IMG/VR virus record: IMGVR_UViG_3300021430_000864
Span: 8,776 to 72,775 of that record
Strand: one strand, 5' to 3'
DNA from: a virus
Taxonomy: Duplodnaviria; Caudoviricetes
Length of the DNA stretch: 64,000 nucleotides
Below, in pieces: positions 18,585-63,857 of the stretch. The translations under genes and the position numbers were made by a program. The notes under the pieces are model-generated. The model saw nothing but the letters and a program-made list of their open reading frames with translations, ran no database searches and was not told the DNA's origin. The stretch's first letter is position 1. Every line of letters begins with the position of its first letter.

Positions 18585-21500
18585 ATGGCATTAATAAAGA
18601 TAAACACAGGTAATTTTGATGGTGAGACCGGAATTATAACATTTTATCCTTGCACGGGTGGTACAATAAGTTTAGGTACTGTCGTGATGCCATATTATTA
18701 TGAAACAAATTATTACTTAGGTACATATTCTGTTTTCTTTCCGGCATTAGATAAAACGTGTGTTGCTGAGATACCATGTCCGACACCTTCTTCAACCCCA
18801 ACTCCTACAACAACACCGACTGCCACTCCAACACCTTCAATTACTCCGACACTTACTCCGACACCTACAAGAACCCCTACAAGAACTCCGTCACCTACAA
18901 GAACTCCATCGGTAACGACAACACCATCCCCGTCAGTTACTCCATCAATCACACCTTCAGCATCACCTGAAGTAACACCTACTATTACCCCAACTGTAAC
19001 TCCAAGTACGAGTGTTACACCGACCGAGACTCCAACGGTAACACCGACTGTTACCCCATCGACATCGGTAACGCCAACTGTTACCCCAAGTGAGACACCA
19101 TCTTTAACGCCAACTGTTACCCCATCGACATCGGTAACCCCTACAGTCACACCAAGTGAAACACCAACTGTTACACCAACTGTGACATCTACAGTCACAC
19201 CGACCATAACACCAAGTGAGAGTGTCACTCCTACGGTTACTCCGAGTGAAACACCAACAGTTACACCCACAATTACTCCTAGTGTGTCAGTTACCCCAAC
19301 ATTAACACCTACTGAAACACCAACAAATACACCAACTGTAACCCCAAGCACTAGTGTGACCCCTACAGTCACACCAAGTGAAACGCCAACTATTACTCCT
19401 ACTATTACTCCATCAACATCGATAACTCCAACGGTTACACCGACTGAGACTCCTACTATAACACCAACTGTAACGCCTTCAACAAGTGTTACGCCGACCG
19501 TTACTGCTACTGTCACACCAACCATAACACCAACTATCACACCTAGTACTTCTATAACACCAACGGTAACCCCAAGTGAGACACCCGCTATTACACCGAG
19601 TTTAACTCCAACTACATCTGTAACACCAACAATCACCCCTACAGTTACCGAAACGGTAACACCAACAGTTACACCATCAACAAGTGTTACACCGACCGTT
19701 ACTGCAACAGTAACACCTACTGTTACACCTTCAACTAGTGTAACCCCGACCGTTACATCAACCGTTACCCCAACTATAACACCGACAATCACTCCAAGCA
19801 CATCAGTAACACCAACTGTTACTGCGACTGTTAGTGCAACAGTAACACCAACCATTACACCCACAACGAGTATTACCCCTACGGTAACCCCAACCGAGAC
19901 ACCAACCATTACTCCTACTATTACTCCATCAACATCGATAACTCCAACGGTTACACCGACTGAGACCCCCACTATAACGCCGACAATCACTCCATCAACA
20001 AGTGTTACCCCTACGGTAACACCAACTGTTACTTCAACTGTAACACCAACCGTGACTCCAAGCACATCAGTAACACCAACTGTTACACCCACTGAAACAC
20101 CGACAATCACACCAACTGTTACTCCAAGTAGTTCTGTTACACCGACAATCACACCAACTGTTACTTCAACTGTAACACCGACAATCACTCCAAGCACATC
20201 AGTAACACCCACAACTTCAGTAACTCCAACGGTGACATCGACTATTACCCCTACAGTAACACCTAGTGTTTCTGTTACCCCAACTATTACACCTACTATC
20301 ACACCCACGGTAACACCATCCACTTCTGTTACACCAAGTACCTCAGTTACCCCAAGTTTCACACCGACTGTAACCGCGACCGTTACTCCTACGGTAACAC
20401 CAACACCCGCACCATCATGTGATATTGATTATACAAGATTACCGTCACCAACTCCAACCACAACACCAACACCATCTTTAACACCTACAGTGACACCAAC
20501 AATTACTGCCACTATAACACCAACCATTACACCAAGTACATCAATTACTCCTACCGTAACCTCAACCATCACTCCAACTGTAACACCAAGTACTTCTGTA
20601 ACACCAACGATTACCACTACAGTTACCCCTACGGTAACACCATCAGTATCGGTAACTCCAACTATTACCCCAACCGTAACCGCAACAGTAACACCTACAG
20701 TAACCCCAAGTACTTCAATTACACCAACATTGACATCAACTGTTACTCCGACAGTAACACCAACTATAACACCATCAACAAGTGTTACACCAAGTGTAAC
20801 TCCAACAATTAGTGCAACAGTTACACCAACCATCACACCTACAACGAGTATTACTCCAACAGTAACCCCAACAATTAGTGCAACAGTTACACCAACTGTA
20901 ACTCCAAGCACTTCTATTACCCCTACAGTAACTCCAACATTGACGGCAACTGTAACACCCACTGTTACCCCATCAGTATCAGTAACTCCAACAGTAACTC
21001 CGAGTACATCAGTAACACCAACTATAACATCTACTGTAACTGCGACAATAACACCTACTGTCACTCCAAGTGTATCAGTAACACCTACTATTACTCCAAC
21101 AAGAACAGCATCGGTTACGCCAACTATAACTCCAACTATAACACCATCAACAAGTGTTACCCCAACCATTACACCAACAGTAACTCCAACTATAACTCCA
21201 ACTATAACACCAAGTACTTCTGTAACACCTACAGTAACCCCAACAGTAACACCGTCAAGTTCGGTGACACCTACCATAACACCTACTATTAGTGCTACTA
21301 TAACACCTACAGTAACACCTTCAACAAGTGTCACCCCATCAACTTCAGTTACTGCAACAGTTACACCAACAATTACTCCAACAGTAACACCTAGTGTATC
21401 TGTTACACCAACTATTACAACAACTCAAACGCCAACAGTAACTCCTTCAACTTCAGTTACCCCAACTATAACCCCTACGATAACACCAACTATCACCCCA

Positions 21501-24500
21501 AGTACTTCAGTTACCCCAACGGTGACTGCAACTATTACTCCCACAATCACACCAACCGTTACCCCGAGTAGTTCGGTAACACCAACTATAACGCCAACAA
21601 TTACACCAACAGTAACCTCAACAGTAACACCGACAGTTACTCCATCGGTATCAGTAACACCAACAATTACTCCTACGGTTAGTGCTACAGTTACACCAAC
21701 GATAACCCCAAGCACAAGTGTGACCCCTTCAACGAGTGTAACACCAACAGTAACCCCTACCATTACACCAACGGTAACCCCTACGGTAACCCCAAGTACA
21801 TCTATAACTCCAACTATAACACCAACTATAACCCCTACTCAAACACCATCAACATCGGTAACTCCAACTATTACCGCAACAATTACACCCACAATTACCC
21901 CAACTATAACACCATCAACATCGGTAACTCCCACTATAACACCAACATTAACAGCAACTGTTACACCTACGGTAACCCCAACAGTAACTCCAAGTACTTC
22001 GGTTACACCATCAACATCAGTAACACCTTCAACAAGTGTTACCCCAACCATAACCCCAACAGTTACACCAACCGTAACTGCAACTGTGACTCCAACAAGA
22101 ACACCAAGTACTACAGTAACCCCAACAGTAACTCCAAGTACGAGTGTTACACCATCTATAACTCCAACAATTACACCAACAATCACCGCAACAGTAACAC
22201 CTACAGTAACACCATCAACTAGTGTAACACCATCAACATCAGTTACACCAACTGTTACTGCAACCATTACTCCAACCATTACTCCAACAGTAACACCATC
22301 AACATCGGTTACTCCGACTGTTACTCCAACTATTACTCCTACGATAACACCTACAGTAACACCATCAACAAGTATTACCCCAACCATTACACCAACAATT
22401 ACTCCTACTGTAACATCAACTGTAACTCCCTCAACTTCTGTTACACCAACTATTACCCCTACAGTAACACCTACGGTTACACCGTCAACATCTATTACAC
22501 CAACCATCACACCGACAAGAACGGCATCAGTAACACCTACTATAACCCCTACGGTCACACCAAGTACATCGGTAACTCCATCAACAAGTGTTACTCCAAG
22601 TACTTCTATTACACCAACAGTTACACCTACAAGAACAGCATCAGTAACTCCAACAATTACACCAACGGTTACACCTTCAACTTCAGTAACTCCAACAATT
22701 ACACCTACAATTACTCCTACGGTAACCCCAAGTACTTCGGTAACACCGACAGTGACACCAACGGTGACTCCGACAGTTACATCTAGTACATCAGTTACTC
22801 CTACAATAACACCTACAAGAACCGCAACAGTTACACCTAGTACATCGGTAACACCTACAATAACACCAACAATTACTTCAACTATAACGCCTACAGTGAC
22901 CCCAACGGTGACTCCATCGACTAGTGTTACACCATCAACAAGTATTACCCCAACTGTAACACCATCAGTTACTCCAACAATAACCCCAACAATAACCCCA
23001 ACAAGAACCCCAAGTACATCGGTAACACCGACAGTAACTCCAAGTACATCGGTAACACCTACAAGAACAGCATCAGTAACACCTACTATAACCCCTACGG
23101 TCACACCAAGTACATCAGTTACACCAACAATTACACCTACCGTTACACCATCAACATCAGTAACTCCTACTATCACTCCAACGGTTACGCCAACCATTAC
23201 CCCTACAAGAACACCAAGTACATCGGTAACTCCTAGTACATCTATAACTCCCACTGTTACGCCAACCATTACCCCTACAAGAACACCAAGTACATCAGTT
23301 ACCCCATCAGTTACCTCATCGGTTACACCTACGGTTACACCATCAACTAGTGTTACACCAACTATTACTCCAACAAGAACACCAAGTGTATCCGTTACAC
23401 CAACCATTACACCTACCATAACACCTACTGTAACCCCAACTATTACACCATCAACAAGTGTTACACCATCAACAAGTATAACACCTACTATTACTCCAAC
23501 AAGAACGGCATCAGTAACTCCGACGGTTACGCCAAGTACGTCAGTAACTCCATCAACTAGTATTACTCCAACCATTACACCAACCATCACACCAACAAGA
23601 ACCGCATCGTTAACACCAACAGTTACTCCAAGTACATCTATTACACCGAGTACATCAGTAACTCCATCAACTAGCGTTACTCCAACTATTACACCAAGTG
23701 TTACACCAACCATTACCCCTACAAGAACACCTAGTACATCGGTTACACCAAGTGTGACCCCAACCATCACACCAACAAGAACACCATCAACAAGTGTTAC
23801 ACCAAGTGTAACTCCAACAAGAACAGCATCAGTTACTCCAAGTACTTCTATTACACCATCAATTACACCAAGTAGAACACCATCTATCACCCCAACAGTT
23901 ACCCCAAGTACTTCTATTACACCATCAATTACACCAAGTAGAACACCATCTATCACCCCAACAATCACTCCAACTATCACACCTTCAACAAGTATAACAC
24001 CTACTATTACTCCAACAAGAACGGCATCAGTAACTCCGACGATTACACCAACGGTTACTCCATCAACTTCAATAACACCGAGTGTTACACCATCTGTCAC
24101 ACCAAGTAGAACACCATCTATCACCCCAACAGTTACACCTTCAACAAGTGTAACACCATCCATCACACCAACAGTAACCCCTAGTACATCAGTAACACCT
24201 TCGATTACACCATCTAGAACGCCAAGTATAACACCTACGGTTACACCATCAACATCAATTACTCCAACAGTAACACCTTCAACAAGTGTAACACCTTCGA
24301 TTACTCCATCGAGAACACCAACCATTACCCCTACAAGAACACCATCAACTTCAATAACACCAAGTGTTACTCCATCGAGAACACCATCAATCACACCAAC
24401 GGTTACACCAAGTACGTCAATAACACCATCTATTACCCCATCTATTACCCCAACCATCACACCTAGCACATCAGTTACACCAAGTGTAACCCCATCAAGA

Positions 24501-26798
24501 ACACCATCTATAACACCAACCATAACACCAACACGTTCAGTAACACCATCAACAAGTATAACACCCACAATCACACCTACACGTTCAGTAACACCAACAT
24601 CATCTATTACCCCAACCATAACACCAACACGTTCAGTAACCCCAACACGTTCAGTAACACCCACACGTTCAGTAACTCCGACACCAACAAGAACACCATC
24701 AATAACACCTACACGTTCAGTAACACCAACGATTACACCATCACCAAGTCCACAGTATATAAACGCAATATTCCAATCATGTTGTCCGGGTGACACCACA
24801 CTTTATTACGGTAGAGTTCCAATTGACGCAATGTCGGGTGACATATTTTATTTACCGGATGCTATGATATGTGGTACATTTATTGTTACGGGAGGTCCCG
24901 GTGGTGTGATTGCTCAACAATATTTTGGTACATGTGAAGATTGTATTGCAGAATCTTTAGTATTTTGTCCTTCACCTACACCAACCCCAACATCAACTGT
25001 TACTCGTACACCAACAAGAACACCATCTATCACCCCAACTATTACACCAACACGTTCCGTAACACCTACACGTTCAGTAACACCAACATCATCTATTACC
25101 CCAACCATAACACCTACACGTTCAGTAACTCCGACACCATCTATCACACCCACAATAACCCCAACACGTTCTGTAACACCAACACCATCGGTAACTGCGA
25201 CTCGTTCAGTAACTCCTACACGTTCAGTAACCCCAACACGTTCAGTAACACCTACACGTTCAGTAACTCCGACACCAACAAGAACACCATCAATAACACC
25301 TTCACCATCAATGGCGATTGGTTATGTTTATTTATTACCATGTTGTGATGGTGGTGGTTTCACGGCAAATTCACAATTTTTAAGTGTTACCACTTCATTG
25401 GTGTGGTTACAAGCAACAAATAGACAAGGATATACAATTGTAATAAATGGGTGTTGTTATGTGATTGAGGGTTATTCACCAACATTTAGTGCACCAAATT
25501 TCACAGGTGTTGATGGGTATTTTGATTCTTCATCATTTGTTGCAGAATCATGTCAACAATGTATTGCGGTTAACCCATGTCAATCACATCAATACCAATT
25601 GGAACCATGTGCCGCTTGTTGTGGAATATCTGGACCCCAAACAATTCAGTTTGGTTGTGAAATCGATGACCCAAATACTTTAGTGGGTAGTATAATTTCA
25701 ATAAATGGTTGTTGTTATGTTGTACAAACATATCTTGGACCGGGAGCACCGAATGCGGGTACTATTGCATATGGACCGTTTGACTTATGTAACGATTGTC
25801 AGGTATATTACCCATGTCCGACACCAACACCAACCCCAACACGTTCAGTAACACCAACACCATCAAGAACACCGTCAGTTACACCATCAAGAACACCATC
25901 TATCACCCCAACTAGGACAATAACACCAACTAGGACAATAACACCAACTCGTTCTATAACACCTACATCATCTATTACCCCAACAAGAACTCCTTCACCA
26001 ACTCCTTCACCACTCCCTTGTTATTGTCACACAATTATAATTGACCAAGATGACATTGACCCAGTTTTTGGGGGACCGATTATTGAAGTAATTGAATGTG
26101 ATGGTCAACCAAATAATGAACAATTTAACACTGCAGGAACATATGCTCGTTGTTACATAGAAGTTCAAAATTTCTACGCATTTGATTCATTAGGTCTTAC
26201 TTATGAACCTACATTATCATCATGGACAAACACATTTACACCATGTACAGGTCACGGAGATTGTGTTGTACCTACACCTACTCCAACACCTACTCCAACA
26301 CCAACACCGTCAGTTACACCGGCTTGTAATTGTATAGATTATTCACTTAGTGGATTAGAGGAAGCGACATATATAGAGTACATTGATTGTAACGGAAACT
26401 CTCAAGTTATAAACGACCCAAGTTTTTGGACACTTAGTAGCTCTTCAATCAACTTATGTGCGTGTGAGGATTCAATACAAACAGATACACGTGATATTAG
26501 AATAGGTTCTAATGGTTCGTGTCCTGAATGTACATGTTATGAAATATTTATTGACCCACAAGACATAGCAATTGCGGATGATAATACGGTTTACTTCTAC
26601 TACCAATGTTGTGATGGTTCATGGTACATACAACCATACTATTCACCGGGAATGCAACCAAGTCTTTGTATTACTCGACCAATACATTTCGGTATAGTTT
26701 TACAAGGAACTTTAGTGACAGCATTTAACTCATATTCCGGAGCGGGTTCACCATGTTGTGGAGGACTTAGAAACTGTAACTGTTTTGAAACATGCTAA
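18585..26798 (+). CDS. Giant mucin-like Thr/Pro/Ser-rich protein (2737 aa) with C-terminal Cys-rich modules; putative virion fibre
   Basis: Intact 8.2 kb ORF. Short N-terminal beta domain, ~1990 aa of TPTV/TPTI/TPSTSV repeats, then Cys-rich modules separated by PT linkers. Located in the virion gene block. Confidence 0.8.
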   Translation: MALIKINTGNFDGETGIITFYPCTGGTISLGTVVMPYYYETNYYLGTYSVFFPALDKTCVAEIPCPTPSSTPTPTTTPTATPTPSITPTLTPTPTRTPTRTPSPTRTPSVTTTPSPSVTPSITPSASPEVTPTITPTVTPSTSVTPTETPTVTPTVTPSTSVTPTVTPSETPSLTPTVTPSTSVTPTVTPSETPTVTPTVTSTVTPTITPSESVTPTVTPSETPTVTPTITPSVSVTPTLTPTETPTNTPTVTPSTSVTPTVTPSETPTITPTITPSTSITPTVTPTETPTITPTVTPSTSVTPTVTATVTPTITPTITPSTSITPTVTPSETPAITPSLTPTTSVTPTITPTVTETVTPTVTPSTSVTPTVTATVTPTVTPSTSVTPTVTSTVTPTITPTITPSTSVTPTVTATVSATVTPTITPTTSITPTVTPTETPTITPTITPSTSITPTVTPTETPTITPTITPSTSVTPTVTPTVTSTVTPTVTPSTSVTPTVTPTETPTITPTVTPSSSVTPTITPTVTSTVTPTITPSTSVTPTTSVTPTVTSTITPTVTPSVSVTPTITPTITPTVTPSTSVTPSTSVTPSFTPTVTATVTPTVTPTPAPSCDIDYTRLPSPTPTTTPTPSLTPTVTPTITATITPTITPSTSITPTVTSTITPTVTPSTSVTPTITTTVTPTVTPSVSVTPTITPTVTATVTPTVTPSTSITPTLTSTVTPTVTPTITPSTSVTPSVTPTISATVTPTITPTTSITPTVTPTISATVTPTVTPSTSITPTVTPTLTATVTPTVTPSVSVTPTVTPSTSVTPTITSTVTATITPTVTPSVSVTPTITPTRTASVTPTITPTITPSTSVTPTITPTVTPTITPTITPSTSVTPTVTPTVTPSSSVTPTITPTISATITPTVTPSTSVTPSTSVTATVTPTITPTVTPSVSVTPTITTTQTPTVTPSTSVTPTITPTITPTITPSTSVTPTVTATITPTITPTVTPSSSVTPTITPTITPTVTSTVTPTVTPSVSVTPTITPTVSATVTPTITPSTSVTPSTSVTPTVTPTITPTVTPTVTPSTSITPTITPTITPTQTPSTSVTPTITATITPTITPTITPSTSVTPTITPTLTATVTPTVTPTVTPSTSVTPSTSVTPSTSVTPTITPTVTPTVTATVTPTRTPSTTVTPTVTPSTSVTPSITPTITPTITATVTPTVTPSTSVTPSTSVTPTVTATITPTITPTVTPSTSVTPTVTPTITPTITPTVTPSTSITPTITPTITPTVTSTVTPSTSVTPTITPTVTPTVTPSTSITPTITPTRTASVTPTITPTVTPSTSVTPSTSVTPSTSITPTVTPTRTASVTPTITPTVTPSTSVTPTITPTITPTVTPSTSVTPTVTPTVTPTVTSSTSVTPTITPTRTATVTPSTSVTPTITPTITSTITPTVTPTVTPSTSVTPSTSITPTVTPSVTPTITPTITPTRTPSTSVTPTVTPSTSVTPTRTASVTPTITPTVTPSTSVTPTITPTVTPSTSVTPTITPTVTPTITPTRTPSTSVTPSTSITPTVTPTITPTRTPSTSVTPSVTSSVTPTVTPSTSVTPTITPTRTPSVSVTPTITPTITPTVTPTITPSTSVTPSTSITPTITPTRTASVTPTVTPSTSVTPSTSITPTITPTITPTRTASLTPTVTPSTSITPSTSVTPSTSVTPTITPSVTPTITPTRTPSTSVTPSVTPTITPTRTPSTSVTPSVTPTRTASVTPSTSITPSITPSRTPSITPTVTPSTSITPSITPSRTPSITPTITPTITPSTSITPTITPTRTASVTPTITPTVTPSTSITPSVTPSVTPSRTPSITPTVTPSTSVTPSITPTVTPSTSVTPSITPSRTPSITPTVTPSTSITPTVTPSTSVTPSITPSRTPTITPTRTPSTSITPSVTPSRTPSITPTVTPSTSITPSITPSITPTITPSTSVTPSVTPSRTPSITPTITPTRSVTPSTSITPTITPTRSVTPTSSITPTITPTRSVTPTRSVTPTRSVTPTPTRTPSITPTRSVTPTITPSPSPQYINAIFQSCCPGDTTLYYGRVPIDAMSGDIFYLPDAMICGTFIVTGGPGGVIAQQYFGTCEDCIAESLVFCPSPTPTPTSTVTRTPTRTPSITPTITPTRSVTPTRSVTPTSSITPTITPTRSVTPTPSITPTITPTRSVTPTPSVTATRSVTPTRSVTPTRSVTPTRSVTPTPTRTPSITPSPSMAIGYVYLLPCCDGGGFTANSQFLSVTTSLVWLQATNRQGYTIVINGCCYVIEGYSPTFSAPNFTGVDGYFDSSSFVAESCQQCIAVNPCQSHQYQLEPCAACCGISGPQTIQFGCEIDDPNTLVGSIISINGCCYVVQTYLGPGAPNAGTIAYGPFDLCNDCQVYYPCPTPTPTPTRSVTPTPSRTPSVTPSRTPSITPTRTITPTRTITPTRSITPTSSITPTRTPSPTPSPLPCYCHTIIIDQDDIDPVFGGPIIEVIECDGQPNNEQFNTAGTYARCYIEVQNFYAFDSLGLTYEPTLSSWTNTFTPCTGHGDCVVPTPTPTPTPTPTPSVTPACNCIDYSLSGLEEATYIEYIDCNGNSQVINDPSFWTLSSSSINLCACEDSIQTDTRDIRIGSNGSCPECTCYEIFIDPQDIAIADDNTVYFYYQCCDGSWYIQPYYSPGMQPSLCITRPIHFGIVLQGTLVTAFNSYSGAGSPCCGGLRNCNCFETC
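18780..24752 (+). repeat. ~6 kb coding low-complexity repeat tract (TP[TS][VI], TPSTSV, TPTRSV units)
   Basis: Continuous ACN/CCN/GTN/TCN codon array with mostly synonymous variation between units. One short break (APSCDIDYTRL) near 20405-20445. Confidence 0.95.
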
Positions 26799-26815
26799 TA
26801 AAATGATGATTTAAC

Positions 26816-26823
26816 TATTTATA
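26816..26823 (+). promoter_or_regulatory. TATTTATA motif (putative late promoter element)
   Basis: Exact motif 13 nt before the ATG at 26837. Confidence 0.6.
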
Positions 26824-26836: not shown

Positions 26837-28246
26837 ATGCCAACACCAACTCCAACACCTTCAGTTAGTCCGGGATGTAGTAATTACTTATTCAAACTAC
26901 AAGACGTGTATTATGCAACACAAGCTGGTCCCTTTAATTTATCAGGAACAACCGATTTAGGTTCAACTATATTAATAGAATCTGGTGTTACATTAAGTCA
27001 ACTACAATCAGGATTTACCGCGACGATATGTACAACAATAACCGGAGGTACAATACAAAGTATTGGGAGTTGTGACACATTATTCAATTACGTAATATTC
27101 ATACCATCACCAACACCTACCCCATCTATTACGCCAACCCCAACACCATCAGTTTCAATAACACCTACAATCACCCCAACTATAACACCATCAAGCTCAA
27201 GTGTTCAACAAGTTTCAGTAACACCAACACCAACACGAACTGTTACACCAACCCCAACGCGCTCAGTGACCCCAACACCATCTAGTAGTTTACCACCTGT
27301 AGGTGAATATTATTACCGACCAAACAGTTGGGCCCCACCATATATTAATCAAGGTAGTGGGGATAATTACTTAGTAACATCGAATAGTTTATCGACAGAG
27401 ATTAGTACGTCTGTTATTGATTACACAACAACCGATTGGTCATTTTCATTATGGGGTTACCCTCAATTTGATACCACCGTACCACCTTTTGACAATTATG
27501 GTAAAACCTATGTTTCAACCTTAGTTTCAATTTGTGTACCGGGAGCAACACCTCCTTTCCCTGACACAACATTAACCAATCTTACAATTGCAGTTGAATA
27601 TACTTCAGGGGCAACGTTGGTTAACGATTTAGTTGTTTATATGTTGGATGATTTGAATAGAAGTGCGAAATGGACATGGGCGATTAATTCTGACCCAAAT
27701 GCAACCATAACGGGTGTTAGTCCTTTAGAAATGTGGGATAATATTAATTTCGGTAGTACTTTAAATTCGGATAGATTCTCAAATATTGTGATTACACATG
27801 ATAATTCTTTAGTTATTAGTTCACCATCAGGTAGTACAATGGCATATTGGAATGGAGAATTACTTGAATTAAAATCGTACACCGAAAGTGGTCCTGTATA
27901 TCCTCATATTAGTAATTACAATTCATTAAATGATTCTAAATTCTATATAGCACAAGGTAGTTTAATGGGTAATAATGGTGCTTTTCATCCATTGAGCACA
28001 AATATTGATAACCCAATATATTTCCCATCAATAATTTTATCTCCATCCGAATCACTTACAATTTATAATGGTGGTGTTGTACAAACATCAATAACCACAG
28101 GTTTGGGTCAAGCATATATTTGGAATTTTGATAACTTATCGGCATCTCATTTGGAGTGTTTAGACCAAACAAATGTAACAGTTCCACAATTTCTGTTAGA
28201 ACAAAAAAGTGGTGGTGGGGGAATACAAACCTATATTCTTGTATAA
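26837..28246 (+). CDS. PT-linker protein with a C-terminal LamG/concanavalin-A-like domain
   Basis: PT tract, then WSFSLW...NIVITHD...AYWNGEL...IDNPIYF...LSPSESLTIYNGG, which follows the LamG-like pattern. Confidence 0.55.
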   Translation: MPTPTPTPSVSPGCSNYLFKLQDVYYATQAGPFNLSGTTDLGSTILIESGVTLSQLQSGFTATICTTITGGTIQSIGSCDTLFNYVIFIPSPTPTPSITPTPTPSVSITPTITPTITPSSSSVQQVSVTPTPTRTVTPTPTRSVTPTPSSSLPPVGEYYYRPNSWAPPYINQGSGDNYLVTSNSLSTEISTSVIDYTTTDWSFSLWGYPQFDTTVPPFDNYGKTYVSTLVSICVPGATPPFPDTTLTNLTIAVEYTSGATLVNDLVVYMLDDLNRSAKWTWAINSDPNATITGVSPLEMWDNINFGSTLNSDRFSNIVITHDNSLVISSPSGSTMAYWNGELLELKSYTESGPVYPHISNYNSLNDSKFYIAQGSLMGNNGAFHPLSTNIDNPIYFPSIILSPSESLTIYNGGVVQTSITTGLGQAYIWNFDNLSASHLECLDQTNVTVPQFLLEQKSGGGGIQTYILV

Positions 28247-29955: not shown

Positions 29956-30306
29956 ATGCCATCAATAAATCAGTATCAAATAACAATATCAAACTTTTCA
30001 GGTAACACACCGTGTGAAGGTTATTATATCTACACAGGTCTTACCCATAATATTGATGATGCGGATTATATAAATGGTTCAGCCACATTAATACCAATAT
30101 CCACAGGATATACATTTAATGTGAATGTATTAGACACATATCCACAAATATTTTTATTTGTTGAACATTGTGATGGACACATAAACCCCATACCGGGTTC
30201 AACACCGAAATTACAAGGTGGATATCAAATGGCGTTACTCGATTTAAGATGTGACGATTGTTTTGTTCCTTGTACGTTTGGTGTGAATGTTATAAAATTA
30301 ATTTAA
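29956..30306 (+). CDS. Small putative virion protein (116 aa)
   Basis: Sits between fibre-like genes. Its sequence style (YTGLT, VEHCDG) is shared with a module of the 1303-aa protein. Confidence 0.5.
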   Translation: MPSINQYQITISNFSGNTPCEGYYIYTGLTHNIDDADYINGSATLIPISTGYTFNVNVLDTYPQIFLFVEHCDGHINPIPGSTPKLQGGYQMALLDLRCDDCFVPCTFGVNVIKLI

Positions 30307-52291: not shown

Positions 52292-52310
52292 ATGTATAAA
52301 AACGGAAAAA

Positions 52311-52493
52311 ATGGAAACTCTAAAGAAAATTAAAGACCTAGTAGAAAAGATGTCAGTTGACACTACTAAGGTATTCGAAAAGGGTAATAGAAGTGCTTCA
52401 ATTCGTGCAAGAAAATATGCACAAGAAGTAAAAGAGTTGATTCCCCAATTTAGAAAAGAATTGTTACAAGAAATAAAGAAACATGATAGTTAA
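52311..52493 (+). CDS. Hc1-family (histone H1-like) small DNA-binding protein
   Basis: VFEKGNRSASIRARKYAQEVKELIPQFRK resembles the Hc1 motif KGNKAAxxRARK...L..FRK seen in Chlamydia and Bacteroidota. Confidence 0.7.
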   Translation: METLKKIKDLVEKMSVDTTKVFEKGNRSASIRARKYAQEVKELIPQFRKELLQEIKKHDS

Positions 52494-56785: not shown

Positions 56786-56787
56786 AA

Positions 56788-57093: not shown

Positions 57094-57094
57094 T

Positions 57095-57376
57095 ATGGGA
57101 AATGAACTAGTGGTATTTACATTGGAAGGATGTGGCCATTGTAAAATACTAAAAGAAAAACTAAGTAACCTGTCGATACCATTTAAAGAAATTGAAGTTA
57201 GTAAAAACAAAGAGATTTGGAATAAAGTGGTAGAACAGACAAAAAATGAATTCCTTCCCGCATTTTACATCAAACAAGAAGGTACAAATAAAGGTCCTTT
57301 CTTTTGTCCTGACAAGGATTTTAAAGATGATGATGAAGCAATTCAGATTATCAAAAAATACATCACAGTAAATTAA
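57095..57376 (+). CDS. Glutaredoxin/NrdH-like oxidoreductase with a CGHC active site
   Basis: VVFTLEGCGHCK...FLPAF. Confidence 0.8.
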   Translation: MGNELVVFTLEGCGHCKILKEKLSNLSIPFKEIEVSKNKEIWNKVVEQTKNEFLPAFYIKQEGTNKGPFFCPDKDFKDDDEAIQIIKKYITVN

Positions 57377-57407
57377 AAAAAGGGGGTTAATACCCCCTTT
57401 ATTTTTT
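57375..57407. terminator. Bidirectional rho-independent terminator between convergent operons
   Basis: A7-GGGGG-ttaata-CCCCC-TTTATTTTTT. Confidence 0.85.
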
Positions 57408-58046
57408 CTTTATTATAAATATACTGTTATAGTCCATGTGGGTATATTCGTTTAAAAAATCATACTTTAATAACCCAATTATGTCATATTCATCAGGGTT
57501 CAATCCCTTGACAATATCATCAACAGCACCTTTTACGTCAGGACTATATTGAAAATCCAAATAATCATCAAAACAAATATATCCACCACTGTTTACTAAT
57601 TTTGAATAGTGGTTAAAATCATTAAAAACACCAACTCTACTGTGGTTACCATCGATGAATAAAATATCTAAATTAGTTACCTTCTCATTGACTAATGATA
57701 CTATTTCAGGATTGGACGAGTCACCTTGAATATACTCAAATGTACTTGAACTATTTTTAAATTTGTTTATGTTTCTTTTTACAACATTTGGGTCAATAGG
57801 TGAACCTAAATCCAAACTATAACAATTTGTTGGGTAATCGTGAGATGAAATTAAAGATACCGAACATCCAGCATACGAACCAATTTCTAAATAGTTTATT
57901 GGTTTATCACCAAATTCTGTTCTAATATCATACAATATATGTGTATGTTTATGGAAAGTTTTCCCTTCCATTTCATTTGCAATCTTATTTATTTTGTTCA
58001 AAGATTCTTTAGTTATTTCAAATGAGTAGTTTTTATTTTCGTTCAT
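57399..58046 (-). CDS. Class I SAM-dependent methyltransferase (Methyltransf_24-like)
   Basis: YLEIGSYAGCS, IQGDS, LFIDGNH, GGYICFDDY. Confidence 0.88.
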   Translation of the reverse strand: MNENKNYSFEITKESLNKINKIANEMEGKTFHKHTHILYDIRTEFGDKPINYLEIGSYAGCSVSLISSHDYPTNCYSLDLGSPIDPNVVKRNINKFKNSSSTFEYIQGDSSNPEIVSLVNEKVTNLDILFIDGNHSRVGVFNDFNHYSKLVNSGGYICFDDYLDFQYSPDVKGAVDDIVKGLNPDEYDIIGLLKYDFLNEYTHMDYNSIFIIKKK

Positions 58047-58737
58047 ATCCTTCTTCTAAATGTTTACATGTTATTTTGTTTACCAAACAACCGGGTTTAT
58101 TAATTGATTTTAAATAATTGGAGGTTCTTTCCCATAAATCAGCATCCCCCGGTAAACCAATTCTTCCGGTTTCTTCATACACATTTCTATGTCTTAGGGG
58201 TATTTCTTTAAAGTTTATACATACAGATGAATGAATTAAACCTTGTGGAACGGGATAAAATGGGACGAATAAATCAGAACTGTCAGTTTGTGGTAATATT
58301 CTACCACCAACGTATTGTGATTTAGTACATAACCATAAAGCACCCGTGGCATCAATACCGTCTTTTAAACTAGACAGGTGATTTACTTCCCACTCATCAT
58401 CATGGTCTAAGTGACAAACATAATCATAACCCATTTCTACCGATTTATTTATACCATAATTGTTGGCAGTACCACCGGCATAATTCCATATTAACCACTT
58501 GTCTGTATATTTTTCTCTTTCAGCTGCGAATGGTAAATTTTCGTAATATAGTTTTTCAGAATCATAAGAGGAAAAAATGTTTTTAAACTCATCTTCATCT
58601 TCATAATGGTCACCAATTACAAAAATCATAAAGTCTTTGTAGTCTTGAGCAAATATTGAATCTAATGCCCTTTTTAAGTAAAACGGTGTTTTTAAATCTT
58701 TTCTTTGGTATGTTGTGATAACAATCGAAAATGTCAT
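58033..58737 (-). CDS. GT2-family glycosyltransferase
   Basis: FSIVITTYQR, ALDSIFAQDY, YVCHLDHDDEW (DxD), IHSSV, DADLW. Confidence 0.9.
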   Translation of the reverse strand: MTFSIVITTYQRKDLKTPFYLKRALDSIFAQDYKDFMIFVIGDHYEDEDEFKNIFSSYDSEKLYYENLPFAAEREKYTDKWLIWNYAGGTANNYGINKSVEMGYDYVCHLDHDDEWEVNHLSSLKDGIDATGALWLCTKSQYVGGRILPQTDSSDLFVPFYPVPQGLIHSSVCINFKEIPLRHRNVYEETGRIGLPGDADLWERTSNYLKSINKPGCLVNKITCKHLEEGYERK

Positions 58738-59465
58738 TGTTTTAATGTTGGTTTATATATGTAAGGATTTGGGAATCCTCTATTTATGAAGTCTTCTTCT
58801 AACATATTTGTATATCGATAATGACAAGACCATCTTATTGTGTCATTTAAAATTTCACCCGATGAATGTATTAATAACGTTGAAAAAATTGCGATATCAC
58901 CAACTTCCATTTCTGGTTGTATTGGTTGACCTTTAGTGACCACAGATGCAAATCCACCAATAGTGGTATAAGGTTGTGGTCCTAATTTATGAGTACCCGG
59001 CCACATTAAAATTGAACCATTATCTTTATTTACGTCAACCAACGGCACCCAAACCACTAATGAATCCATACTTGATAACATTGATAACCAATCTTGGTGA
59101 GGTGGTGTTTTATAATAAACCTCTTCTTTTGATAATTTCGGGTGATTGAAAAACAATACAGGTCTAGTACATAGATTAGGAAACTCAACACCTAATGATT
59201 TAATAGTTTCAACTAATTTATCTTCTACAGGTAATTTATACAATTCTATTAAACCAGATTGAATTATTTTACCACAATTAATGAAAATATCTTCATGTTC
59301 ATTGAATAATTTAATCATGTTTTCTTTAAAATCACCATCATATCCAAACTTATTAAATTGAATTTTGAAAATGTTTTCCGCTTTCGATTTTATTTTTTCA
59401 ATATAACCTTTATCAAAAAAATTTTTGAGTATAATATATCCTTCTTCTTTAAGTTGTTGTTGCAT
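58734..59465 (-). CDS. PhyH-like Fe(II)/2-oxoglutarate dioxygenase
   Basis: EEGYIILKNFF, TPPHQD (HxD), VVWVPLVD, NGSILMWPGTH, GDIAIFSTLLIHSS. Start placed at MQQQ (59465); the track gives 59498. Confidence 0.85.
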   Translation of the reverse strand: MQQQLKEEGYIILKNFFDKGYIEKIKSKAENIFKIQFNKFGYDGDFKENMIKLFNEHEDIFINCGKIIQSGLIELYKLPVEDKLVETIKSLGVEFPNLCTRPVLFFNHPKLSKEEVYYKTPPHQDWLSMLSSMDSLVVWVPLVDVNKDNGSILMWPGTHKLGPQPYTTIGGFASVVTKGQPIQPEMEVGDIAIFSTLLIHSSGEILNDTIRWSCHYRYTNMLEEDFINRGFPNPYIYKPTLKQ

Positions 59466-60345
59466 ATCCAATACCTGTTTTTCCAAATTGATTACCATTA
59501 TAAAACATAATTAATTTTTTTTCATTTTCAATTATAAATGGATAACATGTCATTAAATTATCCCAATCAGAATTTTCCGTTATGTCTAAATCAATTTCAT
59601 TATTTTTTAACCAATTTATCCCATCCAATGATGTTGCGGTTTTAATTCTGTATGAATGATTTATATCTTCTCTATAATTTGCTTTATCTCTTATGGAATA
59701 CCACATTTTATAGTGGTCATCAATTTTTATAACTCTACATGATGAAATACCCCCCTCGTTTTTTTCCAATGGTATTGAGACAATTCCTGTTGGAATCCAA
59801 TCAATACCATTTACAGATGTTGCATATTTTATATCATAAATCGGTTCAATTTTTTCATTAACCTCAATCCATTCTGAACATGAAAGATACCACATCTTCC
59901 ATTGGTTATTTTCTATTAATATTTCTACCGTACCGATGTAACCGGGTTCTTTATATGACGTGTGAAATATTGGTCCTTTTGAAAATTTATTCCAACTATT
60001 ACCATTATCTTCACTAATTGCTAAACCTAAATTATTATGATATGGGACATCTTGTCTTAACGACCACCCAATATAGTAGAGGTATTTTTTACCATCATGG
60101 GTCACTATATCGGTTGGCATTATTCCTGCCCAATCAAATAATCCTCTATTACCTAAAGATAAAATAGGTTCAATTGATTCATTTAAAATTATTGATGGGT
60201 CATCTTTCCTCACATCAATAAACATCGGGTTACTCTTACCATTAACTCTTGTTGAATAATAGATACGATAAAATGATTCGTACTCATCAACAACCGGAAC
60301 TTGTGCGTGATGTTTGTTGAAAATATTACCTTTTTTAATCCACAT
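59449..60345 (-). CDS. Five-bladed beta-propeller glycoside-hydrolase-like protein (GH32/43/130-like fold)
   Basis: HAQVPVV, RIYYS, PILSLG.RGLFD, YLYYIG, GLAISEDNGNSW, KYATSVNGIDW, KTATSLDGINW, YPFII. Confidence 0.7.
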   Translation of the reverse strand: MWIKKGNIFNKHHAQVPVVDEYESFYRIYYSTRVNGKSNPMFIDVRKDDPSIILNESIEPILSLGNRGLFDWAGIMPTDIVTHDGKKYLYYIGWSLRQDVPYHNNLGLAISEDNGNSWNKFSKGPIFHTSYKEPGYIGTVEILIENNQWKMWYLSCSEWIEVNEKIEPIYDIKYATSVNGIDWIPTGIVSIPLEKNEGGISSCRVIKIDDHYKMWYSIRDKANYREDINHSYRIKTATSLDGINWLKNNEIDLDITENSDWDNLMTCYPFIIENEKKLIMFYNGNQFGKTGIGYATTT

Positions 60346-60346
60346 T

Positions 60347-61027
60347 TTAATAAACCTCTATTGCCGTTTTATTTTGTTTTTTAGCTGGAAGACCCATATA
60401 AAAACTATTGTCTTCTGTTGATTTTGTTATTAAACTACCCATAGCAATAAGACAACCTTCACCTATTGTTGTATAATCCCTTATTGTTGAATTAACACCG
60501 AACCAAGCCCTATCTTTAACATGACAATGTCCTGATAATACCACATGAGAGGTGAAAAAAACATGGTCATCTATTTGTCCATGATGACCAATATGGTTAC
60601 CACTCCACATTACAACATTATTCCCTATTGTGGTAAACGGTTGAATCGTATTATCTTCTAATATAAAACAATTCTCACCAATCTTATTACCAAAAACCGT
60701 TGCTCTACTTGAAACATACGATATATATTCATAACCTTTATGTTTACCCTCTTCATATATTTTTTGTCTAAGGGTGTTCATTTTAACACCGGTCATTGGT
60801 GCAAAAAACAAAAACTCAGAAGGTGGGTAATGATTTTCTAACTCCTCAAATGGAACAACATCATATTCAATTTCAGACCCTCTTGGTTTAAATTTATTTG
60901 ATGTCATATAACTTTTATTTACAGTAAATGCAACTACTTCATAGTTACTGTCATTGGTTAAATAAAAATGAGCTAATTCCGCTGTGTCCAACACACCAAA
61001 AATTACTACTTTATTTTTTTTACTCAT
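60347..61027 (-). CDS. Sugar N/O-acetyltransferase with hexapeptide repeats (NeuD/PglD-like)
   Basis: N-terminal VIFG Rossmann-like domain, left-handed beta-helix repeats (IGENCFI, IGNNVVM, IDDHVFF, VKDRAWF, IGEGCLI), and GLPAK. Confidence 0.88.
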   Translation of the reverse strand: MSKKNKVVIFGVLDTAELAHFYLTNDSNYEVVAFTVNKSYMTSNKFKPRGSEIEYDVVPFEELENHYPPSEFLFFAPMTGVKMNTLRQKIYEEGKHKGYEYISYVSSRATVFGNKIGENCFILEDNTIQPFTTIGNNVVMWSGNHIGHHGQIDDHVFFTSHVVLSGHCHVKDRAWFGVNSTIRDYTTIGEGCLIAMGSLITKSTEDNSFYMGLPAKKQNKTAIEVY

Positions 61028-61689
61028 ATTAATGTGTATTTTTTTAAATCTTCAATTAACAAATCTTTTGGTTTTGTGTATAAACTATCTAATATCGAGA
61101 CATATGGATTTATAATATTATCACTCATCTTAATGAATGATAATTCAATTCCGTTTTCTAAAAAATACTCTTTATCATAAAGAGATTGACCACCAATCGC
61201 ATTAATGTAGCTATCACCATTAAGTGACTTTGTGATTTCAATTAGACCATCACCTTTCTTCTTATTTGTTAAACCAACTGAAGTGTCAATAAACTCAGTT
61301 TGAATTAAAAGGTATTTAGATATTTTTTTAATCAAATTGAAATTAAAGTCAGAAATATTAATATTATCATCGACAAAACATGGGTTAATAATTTCATCAT
61401 TAACTATATTATAGTTTGGTGACTTTGAATATAATTGATGTAATGTTTTTTTAAATTTATCATTGTAATTTTTTTCAAAATTAACATAAATTTCTCTACA
61501 ATTTTTATTTTGACTTGCAGAATGAACGTGTACACCAACCCTAACGTTGTCCTTGATTATGTTTCGAGTCATGTAACTTCTTTTCATAAAAGAAACGTGG
61601 TCTAAATTAACATAAACGTCAACAGAGTCAATTAATTGAAAATACCCTATATAGGGTAAAAAATATGGTTGCATTATACCGATTTTCAT
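61024..61689 (-). CDS. WbqC-family protein (proposed glycyltransferase)
   Basis: MKIGIMQPYFLPYIGYFQLI...RNII...YSKSP...YINAIGG..LY..VSILD. Confidence 0.9.
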   Translation of the reverse strand: MKIGIMQPYFLPYIGYFQLIDSVDVYVNLDHVSFMKRSYMTRNIIKDNVRVGVHVHSASQNKNCREIYVNFEKNYNDKFKKTLHQLYSKSPNYNIVNDEIINPCFVDDNINISDFNFNLIKKISKYLLIQTEFIDTSVGLTNKKKGDGLIEITKSLNGDSYINAIGGQSLYDKEYFLENGIELSFIKMSDNIINPYVSILDSLYTKPKDLLIEDLKKYTLI

Positions 61690-61702
61690 ATCACAAATAC
61701 TT

Positions 61703-62344
61703 TTATTGTTGATATACTTTGAATTTAGATAAATCAGGATACCTCAGTTCTAAATCTTCATTATGTTTTGGTGTATTTGTATCGGTATCATAAAATTGAG
61801 AAATCAACAGTAAACCTCTTGCAGCTAATTCAGGCATCATATAAAAATTCCAACCAATAACAGGGTTGATATCGAAATTATCTTCATGATAACTACATTC
61901 ATCCCTACCACTAAATCTAGCCTTTTTAAACCATTTGTACGCTTCCTCATTGTCGGTTAAGATTGCACCACCTTTACCTAATTTTAGGTGTTTATATGGT
62001 CCGGTAAATGAAACACACATGTGTGTTCCCGGTATGTACATGTTTGTTGTGAATCGAAGAGCACTATCCCAAACATTTGTTGGATATAATTGGTAAGCAC
62101 CTTTAATTGTTTCACCTTCAACATGTCTAAATTTAACTTTTGCACCAGCGTGTATTATTTCGCAAGGAACAGATGGATATGTTCTTGAGGGTATTTCGAT
62201 TTCCATACCATTAACTTTTTCATACATTAACGCCAAAAATAATGCATTACTTTGATTATCCACCGCCACAACATATTTGGCTCCCGTATAGTCTGATAAT
62301 TTTTTTTCAAATTCTTCGGTAATTTTATGAACTCCTTGTGCCAT
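61703..62344 (-). CDS. DegT/DnrJ/EryC1/StrS-family PLP sugar aminotransferase (short form)
   Basis: FEKKLSDYTGAKYVVAV, ALFLAL, WDSA, SFTGPYKHLKLGKGGAILT (PLP lysine), GWNFYM. Confidence 0.85.
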   Translation of the reverse strand: MAQGVHKITEEFEKKLSDYTGAKYVVAVDNQSNALFLALMYEKVNGMEIEIPSRTYPSVPCEIIHAGAKVKFRHVEGETIKGAYQLYPTNVWDSALRFTTNMYIPGTHMCVSFTGPYKHLKLGKGGAILTDNEEAYKWFKKARFSGRDECSYHEDNFDINPVIGWNFYMMPELAARGLLLISQFYDTDTNTPKHNEDLELRYPDLSKFKVYQQ

Positions 62345-62345
62345 A

Positions 62346-63857
62346 TTAATTTAATTTAACGATTTTATTTTCTATTTTATTGATATTTTGATATATGAAT
62401 GGTAAAAGTGTTTCAAAAAAATCTTTATTTGATTTTTCTGATTTATCATCTGAATCATTTCTTGTTTGTGACTCATAATGATATGCCACCGACTTATTTG
62501 AGATAATGTTTTTATATTTAAGAATAACACATTTTAAATTCAATTCAACATCTTCAAAACAATCAATATAGTTTTCATTAAACATACCTAATGTTTCAAA
62601 TAATTTTTTTCTAATCATTAATAACGCTCCGGTATTACCAATCACCTCTAAATTTTGAACATTAAATCCGTAATATGATTTTAAACCCACATGACTTAAT
62701 TTGATTTTATTTTGATTGTCATTAAATATGACAATACCACCATGTTGAAGGGTGTTGTCTTCAAAGTGAAGTCTGGCACCCACTGTTCCCACATTATTAT
62801 TCTCTTTATAGACCGTCAACATATTGTGAATGACATTATTCATCAACTTAATATCGTTGTTACAAAATAAAATAAATGAGTACTCATCACTTATATGATT
62901 TCTCACAACATCGTTATTTATCTTTCCAAAGTTATAATAATCATATTCGATTAAATTAACATCACCTAAAGAAAGAATATTCTCTTTTATCCATGATTTT
63001 TCTTCATCTGTTGAACCGGTGTCGGCAATAAATACAGAAAACAAATTCGGGTCACAATGTTCATAAAATGATTTAACACAATTATGTAACATTTCGACTT
63101 TACCTTTGGTTAGTATAATAACCGCAACCCTACCAATGTTTTTTAATGGTTTTTCTTTTACATGCTCGATGTATATTTTTTTAGGTTTTAAGTCTAACGG
63201 TAAAACTGATTTATATTTTTCTACAAATTTCTCTTTTGTTTCGAAAAACTCTTCGTTTGGTTGACCTACTGATTGGTGAGTAATATCGAATGATGACGTA
63301 ACACCTATTTTTACACCATCTAAAAAATTTGGTAAACAAAAAGAATGGTCGTAGAAATGGAATTTACCAATTGTTTCATCAAATTGGTGTTTTATTTTTG
63401 TTTTGTCTAATCCGATAAACAGACCATCAATTGAAACAACCGGAATCAATTCAGGTAACTTTGTTGAGTATCTACTTAACCATTTATTTTGTCCATCCGG
63501 ATGGTGGTAAACTTGACCAACCATAGTTTGTCTCATTCTCTCCCAATAAATCCCTGATTCGGGAAAATAACACGTACCGGCCTTACCTATTATACCATAG
63601 TCAGGATTATTTTCAAAATCTCTTAGTATTTTTTTACCCCAACCTGTTTCTAATTTAATGTCGTTGTGTATGCAAACAATGATGTTATTTTTTGATTCTT
63701 TGATACCCCTATTATAAACTTCCGCCAATGAATATTGATTAAAATTCTCGTATTCAAGTATTTCGAAATTTTTAATACCAATACTTTTATTGAGGTGTTC
63801 TTTAAACTTTTTATTGTAATCTGAATCTTTGTGTGTTGAATATATTATTGTAATCAT
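62346..63857 (-). CDS. Two-domain glycosyltransferase (GT2-like N-terminal domain + GT2 C-terminal domain)
   Basis: N-terminal SLAEVYNRG, CIHND, FHFYD. C-terminal ADTGSTD, FCNNDI, GTVGARL, NTGALLMI, EDVELNL, AYHYESQTR. Confidence 0.9.
   Translation of the reverse strand: MITIIYSTHKDSDYNKKFKEHLNKSIGIKNFEILEYENFNQYSLAEVYNRGIKESKNNIIVCIHNDIKLETGWGKKILRDFENNPDYGIIGKAGTCYFPESGIYWERMRQTMVGQVYHHPDGQNKWLSRYSTKLPELIPVVSIDGLFIGLDKTKIKHQFDETIGKFHFYDHSFCLPNFLDGVKIGVTSSFDITHQSVGQPNEEFFETKEKFVEKYKSVLPLDLKPKKIYIEHVKEKPLKNIGRVAVIILTKGKVEMLHNCVKSFYEHCDPNLFSVFIADTGSTDEEKSWIKENILSLGDVNLIEYDYYNFGKINNDVVRNHISDEYSFILFCNNDIKLMNNVIHNMLTVYKENNNVGTVGARLHFEDNTLQHGGIVIFNDNQNKIKLSHVGLKSYYGFNVQNLEVIGNTGALLMIRKKLFETLGMFNENYIDCFEDVELNLKCVILKYKNIISNKSVAYHYESQTRNDSDDKSEKSNKDFFETLLPFIYQNINKIENKIVKLN

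Follow-up and report, generated by a model that had tools for sequence, protein, structure and literature searches.

The window analysed here is a 64,000-nucleotide (nt) stretch of a tailed-virus genome (Caudoviricetes), namely bases 8776-72775 of a 72,775-base IMG/VR virus contig (IMGVR_UViG_3300021430_000864; 64 kb of ~73 kb), which CheckV estimates to be ~20% complete. It carries the two gene groups that are the subject of this study: a module of genes encoding Thr/Pro-rich (PT) proteins, the largest of which is a giant stalk protein, and a sugar operon that contains a two-domain glycosyltransferase (GT). Coordinates are window positions unless they are prefixed by the label of a related genome (G, with G000 standing for the window) or of a related locus (L). 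The PT genes follow baseplate genes on the same strand:

3079-3531 and 3533-5365, plus strand: gp25-like and gp6-like baseplate wedge genes (PHROG phrog_261, 4.5e-19, and phrog_6, 9.4e-23)
14253-18491, plus strand: conserved structural protein of 1,412 amino acids (aa), directly upstream of the giant PT gene; no Pfam or PHROG match
18585-26798, plus strand: giant stalk protein of 2,737 aa, with a 65-aa N-terminal domain, a PT tract and Cys-rich modules
26837-28246, plus strand: 469-aa protein with a PT linker (73 aa) and a predicted C-terminal LamG/ConA-like lectin fold
28277-29914, plus strand: 545-aa protein with an N-terminal domain, a PT linker, a predicted 7-bladed beta-propeller, another PT linker and a Cys-rich end
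29956-30306, plus strand: 116-aa open reading frame (ORF) among the PT genes; no family match, 73% identity in G010 and G006
30324-34235, plus strand: 1,303-aa protein of small modules with 63 Cys and six PT linkers totalling 566 aa
34286-36433, plus strand: clade-conserved 715-aa protein, the last of the appendage module; no family match

The original prediction had named four genes with Thr/Pro/Ser tracts, at 18585, 26837, 28277 and 30324, and all four were recovered. The largest tract, put there at ~2000 aa, comprises ~2,226 aa of Thr, Pro, Ser, Val and Ile, running almost unbroken from residue 57 to residue 2060 and continuing in three shorter linkers. Its repeat unit is (T/S)P(T/S)(V/I), and the C-terminal ~500 aa of the same protein form Cys-rich modules with 48 Cys. 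The window tracts qualify as mucin-like or PT linkers: they are of low complexity, contain at least 20% Pro and at least 40% Ser+Thr, and are flanked by folded modules. None of the four PT proteins contains a signal peptide, as had been stated before, or a transmembrane segment. Their placement in a baseplate/tail block was also a fair description, with the wedge genes at 3079-5365 and the PT genes in a co-oriented run that shares the upstream motif TATTTATA.

At the DNA level, the repeat units of the giant gene are only 60-80% alike, so the tract represents an old repetition at the protein level and not a collapsed or recently expanded array. An assembly artefact was ruled out by the divergent repeats, the in-frame N- and C-terminal domains and the presence of intact orthologues in several independent metagenome assemblies. 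The GC content of the window is ~32%, rising to 40-43% with a strong negative GC skew across 18-26 kb and 30-34 kb; these shifts over the PT genes agree with the prediction from composition.

The globular parts of the PT proteins were compared with known folds. The C-terminal domain of the protein encoded at 26837-28246 reached an Atlas feature score of 0.96 to Laminin_G_3 clusters and a structural TM score of 0.64, while the propeller at 28277-29914 gave structural TM scores of 0.7-0.8 against propellers of the YncE/lactonase type. The C-terminal Cys module was modelled with AlphaFold2 (AF2) as a small beta-sandwich (pLDDT 88.6), whose closest solved structures are generic beta-sandwiches (Z <=3.8); among 1.84 billion proteins, 26 related clusters were found, all of them PT-linked. 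Considering their late-gene position, the LamG fold, the 7-bladed propeller and the Cys-rich beta-sandwich modules, the PT proteins look like virion appendages. A 93-aa glutaredoxin/NrdH-like ORF with a CGHC motif (57095-57376, plus strand) is potentially relevant to the Cys-rich appendage modules.

Nearly all genes of the window lie on the plus strand. The sugar operon is found on the minus strand:

57382-57408: bidirectional hairpin with T-runs, read from the sequence as the common terminator of the sugar operon and the convergent redoxin gene (57095-57376)
57399-58046, minus strand: S-adenosylmethionine (SAM) methyltransferase (Methyltransf_24 / rhamnosyl O-methyltransferase CmcI-like; Pfam 2.2e-11 and 1.7e-6)
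58033-58737, minus strand: single-domain GT2 (PF00535, 1.2e-8)
58734-59498, minus strand: PhyH-family 2-oxoglutarate/Fe(II) dioxygenase (PF05721, 2.4e-16, full length; not Tet/JBP)
59449-60345, minus strand: weakly GH130-like protein (PF04041, 1e-5, 25.1 bits against a cut-off of 26)
60347-61027, minus strand: NeuD/PglB/VioB-family sugar N-acetyltransferase (TIGR03570, 3.9e-41, 140.9 bits against a cut-off of 160.8; Hexapep repeats)
61024-61689, minus strand: WbqC-family protein (PF08889, 2e-45)
61703-62344, minus strand: half-length (213 aa) DegT/sugar aminotransferase-like protein (PF01041, 6e-18, only parts of the profile matched)
62346-63857, minus strand: two-domain GT-A glycosyltransferase (PF13712 + GT2), the anchor of the island
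63854-64000, minus strand: 3' end of a small ORF that overlaps the GT gene by ATGA and continues past the window end at 64000; 125 aa in relatives

The eight genes that had been proposed as an operon at 57399-63857 were confirmed by Pfam and NCBIfam, and together they encode three GT-A domains. The "aminotransferase" among them, however, is a half-size DegT protein of 213 aa, and the gene that had been left unnamed encodes the weak GH130-like protein, for which NCBIfam gave beta-1,2-mannobiose phosphorylase at 1.7e-8, far under the cut-off. As for its bounds, the operon does end at the terminator at ~57382-57408, but position 63857 is not its start, as the ATGA-overlapping ORF runs on to 64000. 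The half-length DegT protein showed weak PDB matches to perosamine synthetases and has a 214-aa homologue in the cultured Flavobacterium phage immuto (MW353175.1, 56735-57379; 67% nt identity), which points to a putative functional mini-form and to gene exchange among Bacteroidota phages.

Searching the PDB with the sequence of the two-domain GT returned no match. Its AF2 model (pLDDT 82) came closest to two kinds of solved structure, namely two-domain GT-A polymerases (K4CP, PmHS2 and LARGE1) and protein-directed GT-A enzymes (LH3, Mimivirus R699 and ppGalNAc-Ts). The 125-aa ORF that overlaps this gene, for which a full copy is available at L085:3878-4255, copies a segment of 40-60 residues of the gp23-like major head protein (phrog_138, 4.9e-17), with 62% identity over 40 aa to the true head protein of six genomes. 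G000, L084, L085 and L089 have this ORF, and G006 does not.

To place the window, we searched for relatives. A comparison of 20 kb of the window with GenBank phages at the DNA level gave no match, nor did the 1,412-aa protein match any of their proteins; the phage therefore has no cultured relative and no proteome. Relatives in IMG/VR numbered ~100 for the 1,412-aa protein (98) and more than 200 for the two-domain GT, and include complete or near-complete genomes of 270-324 kb. Two of them, G010 and G006, are colinear with the window, with 60-93% protein identity. An Hc1 histone-like gene (PF07432) was present in 7/7 relatives tested, and a small basic syntenic ORF lies at ~52310-52490 (plus strand) of the window. 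Glutamine-synthetase-like (GlnA) genes were found just past the sugar operon in relatives, whose gp23-like head protein also fits the traits of the moraphages. These are aquatic jumbo phages of up to 307 kb with predicted Bacteroidota hosts, an Hc1 protein and glutamine synthetase, and their GTs form core orthogroups whose target was left open (Perez-Hernandez et al. 2025, PMC12619734). The words threonine and proline have no occurrence in the text of that paper, and Thr/Pro stalk proteins are unmentioned in it. The freshwater/aquatic habitat, jumbo size, Hc1, GlnA, core GTs and gp23-like head protein are all common to the moraphages and the clade of the window, an identity based on shared traits that are matched mainly in the window's relatives, with the published genomes compared by description. 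The window probably derives from an uncultured freshwater jumbo myophage of ~300 kb that belongs to the moraphage lineage and has a predicted Bacteroidota host.

The orthologues of the giant gene in G010 and G006 share its N-terminal domain and differ from it in repeat dialect and length:

G000 (window): giant ORF of 2,737 aa, (T/S)P(T/S)(V/I)
G010: giant ORF of 2,940 aa, (SVTP)n
G006: giant ORF of at least 4,267 aa with a frameshift-like tail, (TPTN/TPTV)n, Asn-rich

Hydroxy residues make up 47-51% in all three dialects, and the Pro content of the three orthologues is likewise kept. With three dialects and lengths from 2,000 to >4,200 aa, it is therefore only the composition that is constrained. 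The length of the G006 tract is reproducible, since G005, G014 and G041, which come from other metagenomes, give a matching count of the PT pattern (303-304 against 291 in G006). At least six related contigs terminate inside a PT tract. In the region G006:53915-70077 (L239/L240), the 4,267-aa Thr/Pro/Asn ORF, whose hydrophobic tail is out of character, overlaps with the following PT ORF (66646-70077); this looks like a frameshift or an assembly error within one still longer gene. Distant members of the clade have ordinary PT linkers only, often between the homologues of the 1,412-aa and 715-aa proteins, so that giant stalks are a feature of the subclade and PT linkers a feature of the clade. 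Homologues of the 1,412-aa protein are fused to PT-bearing extensions in some distant relatives, and the 715-aa protein shows 85% identity in G006 and G010 and 29-31% in distant genomes. At ~0.25-0.31 nm per residue, the stalks would span ~0.5-1.3 micrometres as flexible tethers.

Comparison with the relatives revealed a hypervariable glycan island, all of it soluble, behind a clade-wide two-domain GT; the operon of the window is one of its alleles. This GT is kept at 61-81% identity, and catalytic-looking Asp/His columns are invariant in both of its halves. The syntenic cassette of G006 consists of 15 genes, with FkbM methyltransferases, four GT2s, a GT-D-like protein and a UDP-GlcNAc 2-epimerase, and that of G010 is of the same type. 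The cassette of the window recurs in a distantly related member (L147/L151) with 59-92% identity per gene, indicating that this cassette moves between subclades. Among ~90 island ORFs of eight genomes, none had a transmembrane segment, defined as a hydrophobic 19-residue segment above threshold, and no flippase, polymerase, initiating phosphoglycosyl transferase or ligase was found in the eight islands. The clade clearly devotes coding capacity to glycan synthesis by soluble enzymes of its own.

The motif TATTTATA sits 11-21 nt 5' of the start codons of baseplate and appendage genes in their co-oriented run. Its plus-strand sites in the window are at 3068, 5405, 13315, 26816, 28258 and 34270, with spacings of 11 nt before the start at 3079, 21 nt for 26837, 19 nt for 28277 and 16 nt for 34286; the ORF at 29956 has TATTTAT at -12. 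The overall count of TATAAATA/TATTTATA was not enriched (13 observed against 10.9 expected), its placement alone being notable. The motif may act as a late promoter with very short leaders. In relatives, TATTTATA also heads the strand that enters the sugar island, with the same spacing (L085:3358; L242:~11962, minus strand), and is followed in order by a 62-aa ORF, a terminator-like hairpin, a 66-aa ORF and the GT. The 66-aa ORF is conserved just upstream of the island (L085:3647-3847; L242:~11475-11675, minus strand) and resembles, by eye, a ribbon-helix-helix regulator.

A second group of sugar genes was found in the relatives. GT60 is a family of polypeptide alpha-GlcNAc-transferases (Dictyostelium Gnt1, which acts on Skp1, and the initiators of mucin-type glycosylation in protists), and its characterised members glycosylate polypeptides. 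No GT60 protein (PF11397) is encoded in the assembled 73-kb fragment that includes the window, while PF11397 matched at 180-245 bits in G006, G010 and 26 further related genomes or contigs. The colinear genomes G006, G010 and G041 have two copies each, and most other relatives have one. In close relatives, the GT60 genes head a second sugar operon. In G006 (L261:10764-19585, equivalent to G006:210764-219585), this operon contains two GT60 paralogues, a nucleotidyltransferase, a TylF O-methyltransferase, a RuBisCO large-chain-like protein and a HAD phosphatase fused to a nucleotidyl-transferase-like region. A GT60 gene lies directly downstream of a PT-protein gene in G028 and G032, and near one in G025 and G027. 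Such adjacency was rejected as a general rule, occurring at 3 of 80 loci only. Also discarded was the idea that GT60 tracks PT load: it held in the first seven informative genomes (6/6 against 0/1), and the pattern was gone with 35 genomes. As GT60 systems, then, the relatives share strong PF11397 proteins scoring up to 244 bits, with a PT gene adjoining in two genomes, whereas the window fragment has none, and activity is predicted from sequence.

These observations can be combined in the following model. The window holds two separate hypervariable modules. The appendage module consists of adhesin-type globular parts strung on extended Thr/Pro spacers, one of which has grown to 2,000-4,200 residues in this subclade. 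The glycan island, at its fixed locus, pairs the clade-wide two-domain GT-A with an exchangeable cassette, and the window allele, judging from its enzyme classes, would synthesise an amino-deoxy-sugar glycan with N-acetyl and methyl groups and transfer it to an acceptor. Since all island proteins are soluble, the glycan is most likely built in the cytoplasm, directly on a phage product. Virion proteins would be the most plausible product, and among them the Thr/Pro stalks are the obvious candidates for acceptors. The GT60-family enzymes encoded elsewhere in the genomes of close relatives are the likelier initiators on the polypeptide, and the island would add or diversify outer sugars. The original prediction had held that the general O-glycosylation system of Bacteroidota, acting on exported proteins, should not reach the PT proteins. 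This agrees with the absence of an export signal: without a signal peptide, the PT proteins cannot be reached by host periplasmic O-glycosylation.

Two weak hints favour virion proteins as acceptors, namely the putative TATTTATA promoter on the strand into the island, at the spacing seen for structural genes, and the head-protein-copying 125-aa ORF, which appears to be translationally coupled to the GT. The analysis shows the anatomy of the modules, how they are conserved, the solubility of the island proteins and that known DNA-base routes were not found in the genomes searched; from this we infer the acceptor, the identity of the sugar and any link between stalks and island, and we assign a probability of roughly 40% to the island decorating virion proteins in the cytoplasm. 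That the stalks are among its acceptors is rather doubtful. A still bolder picture, in which the subclade casts micrometre-long mucin-like lines, each a chain of 2,000-4,200 residues with Cys-rich tip modules, sugar-coated by the phage's own enzymes with GT60 making the start and the island adding outer sugars, is unlikely, at perhaps one chance in four.

Several observations weigh against decoration of virion proteins by the island, and of the stalks in particular. The fold matches of the two-domain GT, taken from a model, describe an architecture and do not identify an acceptor. The other seven genes of the window cassette were found in only 5-6 of 80 anchor-GT loci, the cassette is missing altogether in 23 of 67, and the distance between the GT and the next conserved block can be as short as 77 bp or reach 9.5 kb or more. 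The relatives with giant stalks, G010 and G006 (2,940 and at least 4,267 aa), carry at the same locus a cassette unlike that of the window. G022 has the anchor GT and the largest cassette, yet only ~100 aa of PT sequence in 282 kb, and Flavobacterium phage immuto, with its sugar cluster of 12 genes, lacks TPTPTP altogether. Cassette type did not covary with repeat dialect (n=3). The island is located 23 kb from the PT genes (34235 to 57399), amid DNA-metabolism genes (N6/N4 DNA methylases, ThyA and GlnA), and none of 80 loci has a PT ORF at 3 kb or less from its anchor GT. Around the GT60 loci, where just the three mentioned above adjoin a PT gene, PT density is lower than around the two-domain GT. 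Complete genomes with 0-8 matches to the PT pattern still carry GT60, and G022, without GT60, has as many matches as GT60-positive genomes. The GT60 locus of the window genome itself has to be taken from colinear relatives, because only ~20% of that genome is assembled. Finally, the head proteins of six related genomes have a conserved C-terminal end that is not Ser/Thr-rich.

The giant PT genes and this operon had been put forward as a specific pair, and that part of the original prediction did not hold: the stalk relatives G006 and G010 have another cassette, and G022 keeps the island almost without PT. The co-occurrence check that had been suggested, run across relatives, was negative or uninformative, with stalks and cassette varying independently, an outcome that the original prediction had itself listed as refuting, and nothing ties this operon to these stalks. 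Because nearly all genomes have both GT systems whereas PT load differs among them, presence or absence cannot show coupling, and neither system serves the stalks solely; given the negative co-occurrence, arguments from neighbourhood or from presence and absence cannot settle the acceptor. What stands of the glycosylated-filament interpretation is the appendage-like nature of the PT proteins, their lack of an export signal, the soluble sugar genes, the GT60 enzymes in relatives and the failure to find a route to hydroxylated bases; the specific pairing falls.

The most probable of the alternatives leaves the stalks as bare, unglycosylated spacers whatever the island does, and it deserves serious consideration although we would not bet on it. 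Pro at every fourth residue, together with beta-branched residues, would give an extended, protease-tolerant tether whose length and sequence can drift freely, and this is what three orthologues with three dialects and lengths from 2,000 to >4,200 aa would look like. PT load does not follow the presence of either GT system, and short PT linkers are common interdomain spacers. The constancy of the hydroxy residues at 47-51% across dialects is harder to reconcile with bare spacers, however, as are the soluble GT60-type enzymes of close relatives. An exposed, disordered chain of 2,000-4,000 residues in lake water would also be expected to need protection, as is generally known from cellulase linkers and mucins.

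The island might instead remodel host glycans, which we consider somewhat less likely than bare spacers. Its soluble enzymes would act at the cytoplasmic face on undecaprenyl-linked precursors of O-antigen, capsule or general O-glycans, host flippase and transferases would finish the product, and the surface, changed during infection, could for instance block superinfection or the trapping of progeny, the PT stalks being unrelated spacers. WbqC, DegT, the VioB-type acetyltransferase and GT2s are typical of bacterial O-antigen and capsule loci, with which the island also shares the logic of an exchangeable cassette, here a hypervariable one behind a fixed anchor. The island is kept in genomes nearly without PT tracts, GT2 enzymes acting on lipid-linked acceptors need no transmembrane segment, and the GTs of huge phages are currently classed as envelope-associated auxiliary metabolic genes (10.64898/2026.10.24.761521). 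Unlike O-antigen and capsule loci, however, the phage-borne islands have no Wzx/Wzy, ABC transporter or membrane protein, and the eight islands contain no initiating transferase, flippase, polymerase or ligase. Being near-universal (61-81% identity) in a lytic-looking clade, the anchor GT is also more readily explained by a role in the virion or the genome than by an accessory one at the host surface, and the upstream leader bears the motif found before structural genes.

That the GT and cassette place mono- to oligosaccharides on a modified base, protecting the phage DNA from host nucleases in the manner of T-even phages, is improbable. Documented cases include GT clusters of phages by which mono-, di- and trisaccharides are attached to 5-hydroxymethylcytosine, and ThyA homologues that start glycosylated 5-hydroxycytosine; these hypermodification clusters likewise carry variable-sugar GTs, sometimes near structural genes (Pyle et al., 10.1101/2023.12.21.572611; Lee et al., PMC13326640). 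DNA methylases flank the island, a ThyA homologue lies ~5 kb away in G006 and that of G027 is divergent, and the diversity of cassettes would fit an arms race with restriction systems. However, the partners of such clusters, either a C5 methylase with a TET-like dioxygenase or a hydroxylating ThyA, were sought and not found as such sets, and the dioxygenase of the operon belongs to PhyH. Tet/JBP (PF12851) was not found in 8/8 genomes, a result of limited power given that the control search was equally silent. C5 cytosine methylase (PF00145) occurred only in G022, the methylases flanking the island being of the N6/N4 type. The ThyA proteins of G006, G022 and G028 carry PPCH and PFNIASY, the canonical dUMP-specific motifs, and every copy tested was assigned to a PHROG thymidylate synthase family, although sequence by itself does not distinguish them from a hydroxymethylase. 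With 8-18 genes and both O-methyl and N-acetyl amino sugars, the cassettes also go beyond any DNA sugar modification in those papers.

Other genes of the window encode ribonucleotide reductase, primase, exonuclease, SbcCD, a prohead protease, a sigma factor and an N6/N4 DNA methylase. In the relatives, thymidylate synthase genes have large insertions (G006:116922-118247 and the homologues of G028 and G022) or are split into pieces (G032), which suggests inteins, introns or homing-endonuclease insertions. An array of ~5 genes for C5 cytosine DNA methylases was found at G022:116907-131117; G022 is the only near-complete genome without GT60 and has almost no PT tracts.

Virion glycosylation by phage-encoded enzymes has precedents. 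The earlier statement that no description of the pairing was known in a tailed phage was too strong, as virion glycosylation has been published for mycobacteriophages of the Che8 type (Freeman et al. 2023, as cited in PMC12619734) and GTs were already listed there as core genes of moraphages. According to that account, mycobacteriophages use their own GTs to place glycans on virion proteins made in the cytoplasm; the window phage likewise encodes GTs. The mycobacteriophage acceptors, as described in it, are the C-termini of capsid and tail-tube subunits, whereas the head protein of the window's relatives has no such tail. The window GTs had no sequence match at 1e-5 among actinophage records; the one resemblance seen, to a Gordonia phage GT, is at the level of the fold. 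In so far as the cited account describes them, mycobacteriophages have nothing like a 2,000-aa stalk or an exchangeable cassette of 8-18 genes.

Outside phages, the exosporium filament of Bacillus anthracis is built from BclA, a collagen-like protein with Thr/Pro-containing repeats of variable length that is O-glycosylated by soluble enzymes with an anthrose oligosaccharide. Anthrose is a 4-amino-4,6-dideoxy sugar, methylated and N-acylated, for whose synthesis a DegT-type aminotransferase and a hexapeptide acyltransferase are used. BclA is likened here by description, its repeats being GXX units of a collagen triple helix, in contrast to the (T/S)P(T/S)(V/I) of the stalk. Anthrose on BclA is also mentioned in a study of the Mimivirus fibril cluster, which encodes an aminotransferase, an N-acetyltransferase, a SAM methyltransferase and several GTs, puts 2-O-methyl-Vio4NAc on fibrils and varies in content between clades (PMC9614988). 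The window cassette shares the aminotransferase, N-acetyltransferase, methyltransferase and GT classes of this cluster, a likeness of enzyme families in which the DegT protein is half-length on the phage side. In Mimivirus, a eukaryotic giant virus, the cluster itself includes the gene of the fibril protein R135. The stalk genes of the window, in contrast, are 23 kb away from the sugar operon, and the phage cassette has no 4,6-dehydratase.

Virus-encoded virion glycosylation is thus already known; what is new are the Thr/Pro stalks of predicted micrometre scale and the exchangeable island behind a fixed two-domain GT. Independently of any glycosylation, single phage ORFs with 2,000-4,200 Thr/Pro-repeat residues exist, turn over their dialect among close relatives and break metagenome assemblies, and an exchangeable, all-soluble island occupies a fixed locus in a lineage where GTs were merely listed as core genes. 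If the stalks are glycosylated by phage enzymes, they would represent the first mucin-like glycoprotein appendage in a tailed phage and a prokaryotic-virus counterpart of the fibril glycocalyx of giant viruses, with a bearing on how large phages find their hosts in dilute water. Should the sugar-coated lines exist, phage-borne glycans, besides receptor-binding proteins, would set encounter rate, stability and perhaps host range.

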